DNA from: a virus
Length of the DNA stretch: 37,214 nucleotides
IMG/VR virus record: IMGVR_UViG_3300031787_000383
Reading direction: 5' to 3' (one strand)
Below, piece after piece: positions 7,559 through 8,139 of this stretch; the first letter of the stretch is position 1, and every line of letters begins with the position of its first letter. Under the pieces are notes generated by a model that saw only the letters and a list, made by a program, of their open reading frames with translations, was not told the origin of the DNA and ran no database searches. Both the position numbers and the translations under genes were made by a program.

Positions 7559-7815
7559 TGGACTGATAAATAAAAAAGTTTTTGTGAGGGGTCCGTTTTT
7601 GATCGGGCCAGCCGCCGGCCCTGGCCGGGGGCTATCAGCCGACCGGCTCCGATCGACGCAAGCTATCAGCTACCGGCCGCGCCAGCCCGCCAGGCGTGCG
7701 GTCAATGGGTCACATGGGTCATGGCCCAGCGGGTCGAAGGCGTGCGTCCAAACCGCATGCAAACCGGGTCAATGGGTCAAATGGGTCATGACCATTTGAA
7801 TTGATAAACGGTTTT

Positions 7816-7859
7816 GGGAAACGGGCGGGAAAGGGGCGCGGGGCTGGGTGAAACGGGGG
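7816..7859 (+). other. G-quadruplex-forming motif (7 runs of G3-G5 in 44 nt)
   Basis: GGGaaacGGGcGGGaaaGGGGcgcGGGGctGGGtgaaacGGGGG, read directly from the sequence. Confidence 0.6.
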
Positions 7860-7946
7860 TTATGGGTCATCTGGGTCACATGGGTACCCCACTTTTAGTC
7901 GCGCCAATGTTTTGCGCGTGCTCCCGCCAGCGCCGCCATACAGTGC

Positions 7947-7966
7947 TACTGTACGGATATACAGTA
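7947..7966. promoter_or_regulatory. LexA (SOS) box-like palindrome TACTGTACGGATATACAGTA
   Basis: Perfect CTGT-N8-ACAG core; 17/20 match to TACTG(TA)5CAGTA. It overlaps a possible leftward promoter (-35 CTGTCA, -10 TATATC). Confidence 0.4.
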
Positions 7967-8139
7967 TTTTTTTTATTTTGACAGTATCTAACAAAACAAT
8001 GACCCATAAGACCCATTCAGAGGGAAACACGCTCCGCGTAAGGCACCCACGCCAATACCCCGTTGGGGTTCCCATATTGACAGCGCGGCTATCTGCAACG
8101 CGTCTTGTCGCACGCGTCAATGGGTCATGCAAAAAGCGC

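Follow-up and report, generated by a model that had tools for sequence, protein, structure and literature searches.

The DNA analysed here, called the window throughout, is the 37,214-base IMG/VR record IMGVR_UViG_3300031787_000383, and all positions are those of this whole stretch. It is a podovirus-like genome of about 37 kb with a P22-like structural module and a P22-type large terminase subunit (TerL). Between the small terminase subunit gene terS on the minus strand and the early operon on the plus strand lies an intergenic hub, which holds all repeat elements of the locus (Table 1). The repeated unit is the octamer ATGGGTCA, present as three direct triplets, an inverted pair and a single copy around an AT-rich stretch. 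These units probably serve as binding sites of a phage replication initiator and are called iterons here. The proposed initiator is a fusion of an archaeo-eukaryotic primase (AEP) with a superfamily 3 (SF3)-type helicase, which is encoded in the same genome.

Table 1 Features of the hub, of the proposed initiator and of the early and replication genes in the window
Feature	Position	Strand	Remark
Small terminase subunit gene terS	7038–7478	−	Flanks the hub; located upstream of terL and overlaps it; DSL-LC05 has a homologue with terS annotation
Intergenic hub	7479–8213	none	Between terS and the early operon
G+C-rich block CTCCGTTTTTGAYCGG...GCCGGCCC..CCGGGGGCT	7586–7640	none	Between terS-proximal AT-rich DNA and the first iterons
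Iteron triplet 1, TGCGGTCA-ATGGGTCA-c-ATGGGTCA	7697–7721	+	Position kept in class-A relatives
Iteron triplet 2, CCGGGTCA-ATGGGTCA-a-ATGGGTCA	7764–7788	+	
Iteron triplet 3, ATGGGTCA-t-CTGGGTCA-c-ATGGGTAC	7862–7887	+	Last direct array ahead of the AT-rich stretch
AT-rich stretch, candidate DNA-unwinding element	7948–7999	none	Separates triplet 3 from the inverted pair; A+T ≥ 75% in 40-bp windows
Inverted iteron pair, TGACCCAT-aa-GACCCAT	8000–8016	−	Faces the direct triplets across the AT-rich stretch
Single iteron, ATGGGTCA	8120–8127	+	12 bp upstream of a conserved promoter-like element; kept in classes A and B
Possible early promoter, TTGCAA, 17-nt spacer, TGgCAAAGT	8140–8168	+	Predicted from sequence; conserved in relatives
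Beta-clamp-like protein	8614–9204	+	Early gene; Pfam match to the central domain of the DNA polymerase III beta sliding clamp, E = 1e-10
AEP-primase/SF3-type helicase fusion, proposed initiator	10783–13224	−	813 aa from GTG at 13224; likely true start ATG at 13122
Helicase and C-terminal domain, residues ~395–813	10786–12042	−	Part co-segregating with the iteron motif
Probable winged-helix domain, residues 719–790	10855–11070	−	AlphaFold2 and Foldseek
Beta-hairpin 'wing', residues 763–781 (IDLGRVKATPNGSKVHLYA)	10882–10938	−	Segment varying with the iteron motif
Family-A DNA polymerase (PolA)	13164–15125		Replication module
DUF2800/PD-(D/E)XK nuclease	16499–17572		Replication module
SNF2 helicase	19323–20612		Replication module

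The clustering of ATGGGTCA in the hub is real and non-random. The exact octamer occurs seven times in the window, and all seven copies lie within about 430 bp (7705–8127). Chance expectation is 0.75 ± 0.93 copies per window, and none of 100 shuffled sequences gave seven. An earlier reading of the window, made from the sequence alone (the sequence-only reading), had suggested counting the octamer in the rest of the genome. This count gave zero exact copies outside 7705–8127, and copies with one mismatch outside the hub were at chance level (26 observed, 19 expected). For the heptamer TGGGTCA, 8 of the 14 copies of the window are inside the hub. The same reading had listed 12–13 copies; every listed site was found in its place, and the number holds as seven exact plus five degenerate iterons with one or two mismatches. 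Two extra degenerate inverted copies (7722–7729 and 7789–7796) directly adjoin triplets 1 and 2 at their last unit, and the total is 12–14 sites when degenerate copies are included. Within the triplets, unit starts are 8 or 9 bp apart. The AT-rich flanks of the field were likewise recovered, as the two 60-bp segments with the lowest G+C of the entire stretch (27% each) begin at 7958 and 7495. The description of the hub as the longest non-coding stretch stood in part: the open reading frames (ORFs) listed in 7479–8213 are without coding signal or protein conservation, but positions 1–800 are possibly gene-poor too.

Relatives of this phage carry a repeat field of their own. More than 599 related terL stretches are present in IMG/VR, and the nearest GenBank records, with a TerL identity of about 69%, are the metagenome-assembled phages MW202483 and DSL-LC05. 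DSL-LC05 was assigned to a proposed new family without known relatives, and 'Luchaoviridae' is the family name proposed for the group (PMC10611076). More than 50 related uncultivated phages have an equivalent repeat field at the same place, in a hub of similar size, and its 7–10 bp motif is lineage-specific. In DSL-LC05 and MW202483, the most clustered k-mers of the entire genome sit between terS and the divergent early genes. Among 60 IMG/VR loci, the top clustered 7-mer in the 2.2 kb upstream of terS/terL is present in 3–14 copies, mostly 6–12, as against 3–6 copies in coding controls of equal length.

At least eight motif specificities can be distinguished. Class A, to which the window belongs, has ATGGGTCA, class B GTGGGGTAG, class C (G)ATGGGC(A/C), class D TGTGGGCAAT, class E TGTGGACAAT and class F TTTGGGTCATTT; the motif is ATGTAAAC / GTTTAYGTAAAC in MW202483 and CCCAGTGGGTCAG in DSL-LC05. 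The layout is constant in classes A, B, D, E and F. It consists of direct pairs or triplets, 40–80 bp of DNA with at least 75% A+T, and an inverted pair located 90–130 bp from the last direct copy. Classes A and B have an additional single copy near the early promoter region. Across eight class-A hubs, conservation is highest in the iteron columns, where column agreement reaches 90%, versus 66% elsewhere. A further class, 'H', had been taken for a simple GTTAGTG repeat; this assignment was rejected, and the actual iterons are TGTGGGCAAT/GTGGAC, which match its E/D-like hairpin (see below).

In GenBank, coding sequences (CDSs) annotated as 'hypothetical protein' overlie the repeat fields of DSL-LC05 (L004; 33492–33857) and MW202483 (L003; 28105–28257 and 28291–28488). 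These small CDSs are probably not genes, and their annotation is corrected here accordingly.

The related phages are mosaics and thereby offer natural swaps of motif and protein, which allowed us to ask which protein follows the motif. We counted pairs of loci which are at least 95% identical in a given protein and nevertheless have different motifs. One locus, L013 (IMGVR_UViG_3300044911_001532), was set aside, and the C1/C2 split was treated as one motif and left out of the zero counts. Such near-identical pairs with different motifs number 60 for TerS, 60 for TerL, 43 for PolA and 19 for the AEP domain of the primase (residues 35–400). For the helicase region (400–650) and the C-terminal regions (650–813), the number is zero. 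Values of the area under the curve for whole proteins are 0.92–0.97 throughout because of shared ancestry, and counting near-identical pairs is more informative. A screen of ORF families for motif tracking returned mostly spurious antisense ORFs in polA and in the primase gene.

A sliding comparison placed a recombination breakpoint near residue 395 of the primase. In a class-A subgroup (L173, L176, L186, L187 and L194), residues 65–394 are 91–100% identical to class B. Residues 395–813 of the same proteins are 41–69% identical to class B, apart from two conserved 30-residue stretches with 91% and 83%, and are mostly 71–100% identical to the type of the window. Linkage alone is an unlikely cause of this association, because even phages of one class differ in the early genes that separate the primase gene from the hub. 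Judged by these sequence comparisons, it is only the helicase/C-terminal half of the primase-helicase (residues ~395–813), among the conserved proteins tested, that tracks the motif. An early rejection of the primase-helicase as the reader, based on few loci and on L013, was overturned, as L013 is the sole exception among 48 proteins.

Other candidate binders were not supported. The sequence-only reading had named two of them as alternatives. The winged helix-turn-helix (wHTH) protein of 108 aa (21251–21577) is missing in about half of the relatives, and the proteins of the window and of L186, both class A, are 43% identical; the basic 221-aa protein was found in seven loci only. Neither can be retained. 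Further candidates (p213, the DUF2800 nuclease, SNF2 and a DUF3310 protein of 106 aa) were rejected because they are not universal or are equally similar in classes A and B. TerS was rejected as well, since identical TerS proteins occur beside different motifs.

Primase-helicase: The protein has matches to DUF5906 and to a PHROG DNA primase family, and its helicase core gave a profile match to the primase-helicase of phage NrS-1 (6k9c, E = 2e-12). The last 100 residues consist of a conserved helix, ALLHALKEAGW, followed by a variable segment, and the C-terminal domain has no Pfam match. In an AlphaFold2 model of the C-terminus (8 sequences only, pLDDT 67), three helices precede a beta-hairpin that holds the variable segment, which is a winged-helix topology. 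In a Foldseek comparison of this model with the PDB, all matches are weak (E ≥ 0.1), and the top ranks are nearly all winged-helix proteins (RTP, PadR/LmrR, MarR). A winged helix at the C-terminus of the primase-helicase is thus no more than moderately supported by the predicted structure.

Wing and motif: The link to the motif is clearest in the variable beta-hairpin. Motif ATGGGTCA goes with the wing GRVKATPNGSKVH / GRVKTADNGNKVH, GTGGGGTAG with GMCHSREHPTKRH, ATGGGC with GRVKTVEHGTKTH, TGTGG(G/A)CAAT with GRL(H/K)SREF(P/D)TKKH, TTTGGGTCATTT with GRVASGDFQSKKH and ATGTAAAC with GMCFAPELSTKRH. In classes E and F, the preceding helix is identical and more than 80% of the C-terminus is common; wing and motif both differ. 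Two contigs from metagenome-assembled genomes (MAGs) bear on the pairing. L269, which was added later, fits it well, with the wing GRLKSRRHDSKKH and 12 copies of TGTGGAC, and L250 fits more weakly, with just five clustered copies of TGTGGGC. The pairing was found in all sampled motif classes, with L013 as the one exception.

Taken together across the relatives, the hub (7479–8213) is likely to be the replication origin of the phage, with iterons for a self-loading primase-helicase. The sequence-only reading had compared the locus with the alpha protein and ori of the satellite phage P4 and proposed the AEP-primase/SF3-helicase as the protein that binds the origin; no other reading withstands the comparison of relatives. 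Features of an origin were found at the locus. The short repeats are clustered far above chance in direct and inverted orientation, and an AT-rich element (7948–7999) lies between triplet 3 on the plus strand and the inverted pair on the minus strand. The genome encodes a candidate initiator with an SF3-type helicase, and initiator and iterons occur as matched specificity pairs in all motif classes sampled, L013 excepted.

A mechanism can be proposed on this basis. The 8-bp ATGGGTCA units would be iterons bound by the winged-helix-like domain at the extreme C-terminus of the primase-helicase, and neighbouring iterons may be occupied by neighbouring subunits of one ring. The direct triplets and the opposed inverted pair bracket the most AT-rich DNA of the genome (7948–7999), and helicase rings on the iterons of either side, facing each other, would melt it. 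The two rings would load themselves without host DnaA. The whole window has no DnaA box (TTWTNCACA), in agreement with a self-loading initiator. Synthesis for the phage PolA would next be primed by the fused primase. By way of the single copy beside the early promoter, occupancy by the initiator might be coupled to early transcription, which would give this copy a regulatory role.

The arrangement resembles several known systems, and each of them differs in some respect. P4 alpha combines primase, SF3 helicase and a C-terminal winged-helix origin binder in one polypeptide (PMC2777425). The P4 record annotates 8-bp 'ori type 1' repeats as pairs and triplets in direct and inverted orientation, with starts 9–11 bp apart (8–9 bp here), and the P4 ori is intergenic between divergent operons, as in the window. 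However, the primase of alpha is of the DnaG/TOPRIM type (PMC2777425), whereas that of the window protein is an AEP. P4 requires a second cis site, crr, which adjoins the alpha gene, but there is no second repeat cluster in the window. An AT-rich core between convergent repeats stands out more clearly in the window than in P4. The resemblance to P4 alpha is functional, without detectable homology.

In the self-loading helicases (Rep/PriRep) of the staphylococcal pathogenicity islands (SaPIs), the C-terminal winged helix of Rep binds iterons, which are opposed on either side of an AT-rich region (PMC9371898). The SaPI ori has 6–12 iterons, at least two per side of the AT-rich centre, and two iterons fit on a 19-bp duplex (PMC9371898). 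Initiator and origin are matched specificity pairs, and some islands have a primase-helicase fusion (PMC9371898). In contrast to the window, SaPI iterons are 5–6 bp long and located immediately downstream of rep; the iterons of the window are 8 bp long and about 2.6 kb away from the gene, beyond the variable early operon. Moreover, the window protein has no sequence match to solved Rep structures, and the window is an apparently virulent podovirus and no satellite.

ORF904 of the archaeal plasmid pRN1 has an AEP prim-pol, an SF3 helicase and a C-terminal winged helix in the same order as the window protein, and no cognate binding site could be found for it (PMC2777425). In the window, by contrast, there are obvious candidate sites, which vary along with the protein; the sequences of the two proteins are distant. 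The NrS-1 primase-helicase (6k9c/6k9e) is the closest solved relative of the helicase core of the window protein, but the match is limited to this core, and the C-terminal 100 residues are without counterpart among solved structures. Iteron plasmids (RepA/pi/TrfA) also have repeated initiator sites beside an AT-rich unwinding element. Plasmid iterons are 17–22 bp long with a spacing of about two helical turns, and they act together with DnaA boxes and a host helicase loader. In the window, the units are 8 bp long with starts 8–9 bp apart, there is no DnaA box, and the candidate initiator is itself the helicase.

Several points weigh against an origin read by the primase-helicase. The most direct of them is L013, which has class-A iterons together with a class-B helicase and C-terminus. 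Over 5.8 kb, L013 is 98.5% identical to the class-B contig L182 and differs only in the iteron field of about 500 bp, −1350 to −848 from terL. Either a real exchange of cassettes took place, or the contig is a chimera produced by metagenome assembly across conserved flanks. Should L013 be a viable phage instead of such a chimera, the pairing of helicase and motif would not be obligatory. Furthermore, motif co-segregation was observed among related sequences, so the loci are not independent evidence. In DSL-LC05, the half-site TGGGTCA is kept though the primase is from a different family; hence, similar motifs can arise with unrelated readers. The C-terminus of this primase has a similar helix-GW-strand pattern. 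The winged-helix fold comes from the model with pLDDT 67 from 8 sequences and from Foldseek matches with E ≥ 0.1, and the origin-binding domain of P4 alpha was not among the 50 Foldseek matches listed. Homology to P4 alpha was not detected either by BLASTP (best E = 1.6) or by a profile comparison of the C-terminus (probability 0.05%). Finally, the cumulative GC skew tracks gene orientation and is uninformative on the position of the origin.

The repeats might instead be operators for the divergent terS/late and early promoters, bound by a phage factor or by an autoregulating primase-helicase. The hub does lie between divergent operons, the copy at 8120–8127 is 12 bp upstream of the conserved promoter-like element, and in DSL-LC05 a palindromic copy is located in the spacer of a TTGACA...TAGAAT element. 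Origin and autoregulatory sites are also combined in iteron plasmids. The triplets, however, are remote from both likely promoters, at 220–410 bp from the start of terS and 330–520 bp from that of the early gene. A consensus scan of the hub for promoters and terminators called none, including no strong sigma-70 promoter and none at 8140–8168. The wHTH protein as candidate regulator is lacking in about half of the relatives and does not track the motif, the early genes adjoining the hub are not conserved within a class, and repeats converging on an AT-rich core are not a feature of operators. Operators are therefore an unlikely explanation of the field. The operator role that the sequence-only reading had considered is unlikely for the arrays, which are far from promoters and with which the wHTH protein does not travel; it may apply to the promoter-proximal copy at 8120–8127, and one or two iteron copies may have such a role in addition.

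Another explanation is that the repeats bind some other factor, namely a centromere-like/ribbon-helix-helix protein or a host protein, or that they have a decoy or anti-defence function. Tight 7–9 bp units in direct and inverted orientation are typical of omega/ParG centromeres and operators as well, the iteron field of L013 moves independently of the helicase, and many small ORFs of the window are without annotation. On the other hand, no partition or ribbon-helix-helix gene was found in the 30 ORFs scanned, which did not cover every small ORF. In species-representative genomes, a single-sequence search gave no match, and a profile search gave short MAG contigs binned to many phyla plus a Methylobacter match of 32% identity. 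No prophage copies were seen in these genomes, and no homologue above 32% identity was found in an isolate genome, which speaks against a plasmid-prophage lifestyle. As the feature is universal, its binder should be universal too, and the helicase half is the only part among the conserved proteins tested to follow the motif. Differing motifs in phages with near-identical structural genes would not be accounted for by a host factor. We consider binding by another factor improbable.

It is most improbable that the repeats are a pac site at which the small terminase starts headful packaging, as the sequence-only reading had also suggested: the repeats are directly upstream of terS, a P22-type TerL implies headful packaging from a pac site and some pac sites hold short repeats (e.g., P1, SPP1), but in P22-like phages pac lies inside the terS gene, the 60 TerS pairs with different motifs include one of 100% identity (L007 with a ATGGGTCA field and L012 with a GTGGGGTAG field), and the TerS of DSL-LC05 is unrelated while its motif still contains TGGGTCA.

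With the primase-helicase as the likely reader of the iterons, a concrete origin and a concrete initiator are proposed for a large group of uncultivated freshwater podoviruses. The principle of such origins is already known from P4 and the SaPIs; the phage group was previously unstudied. The natural series of wings and motifs is a ready-made experimental panel for the choice of origin by SF3 primase-helicases, a question that could not be resolved with the archaeal analogue ORF904. Between classes A and B, TerL is about 92% identical and TerS up to 100%. It is conceivable, though doubtful, that wing and motif form orthogonal origin-initiator pairs which diversify fast among near-identical co-occurring phages, driven by replication exclusivity. 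Such exclusivity could serve, for example, to avoid cross-loading in co-infection or hijacking by satellites, and L013 would then be a real cassette swap in transit. If this is true, the natural pairs would give a readable wing-to-DNA recognition code for the winged-helix class.

Other elements of the hub were noticed beside the iterons. The G+C-rich block at 7586–7640 is conserved across motif classes (L007, L013, L016, L036, L022 and the class-A hubs) and could be a pac site, a priming site or a promoter element. Directly after it, at the equivalent of 7630–7690, there are lineage-specific simple tandem repeats of very different lengths. These are (CTGCCCGC)x12 in L013, (CGTCAGC)x5 in L007, a long (CCCG)n run in L186 and GTTAGTG units in L084 and L242; the window has just two copies of GGCTATCAGC. 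A second short motif, ATTGTGTGG, is present on the plus strand at 7495–7503 and 7548–7556, with a third copy, ATTATGTGG, at 8157–8165, so that the motif is located close to either end of the hub. At 8157–8165, it overlaps the putative extended −10 element of the early promoter. Some relatives have a perfect DnaA box, TGTGGATAA, beside their iteron triplet, in L084 at about 990–1000 and in L242 at about 300–310 of the displayed hub. No Rfam family matched in the hub, a blastn search of the hub against GenBank phages gave no match, and tRNA genes are absent from the window.

In the neighbouring genes, the early operon beside the hub (8214–10100) is almost wholly different in L016, L017, L013, L012 and L036 despite TerL identities of 92–99%, which marks it as a hypervariable accessory region. 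The best PHROG family of its beta-clamp-like protein is named 'RusA-like resolvase', probably a misleading name. Two genes look like mobile insertions. One is a NUMOD4/HNH homing-endonuclease gene (15110–15610, minus strand) between polA and the next replication gene, which was found in about 15 related loci only. The other is an ORF of 170 aa beside terL (5125–5637, minus strand), present in five loci only. In the structural module, a coding tandem repeat (GCACCT)n of about 18 copies with 94% match (27749–27881) is located inside the ORF 26887–28377 on the minus strand; read on the gene strand, it would give a Gly-Ala repeat within a protein of 496 aa.

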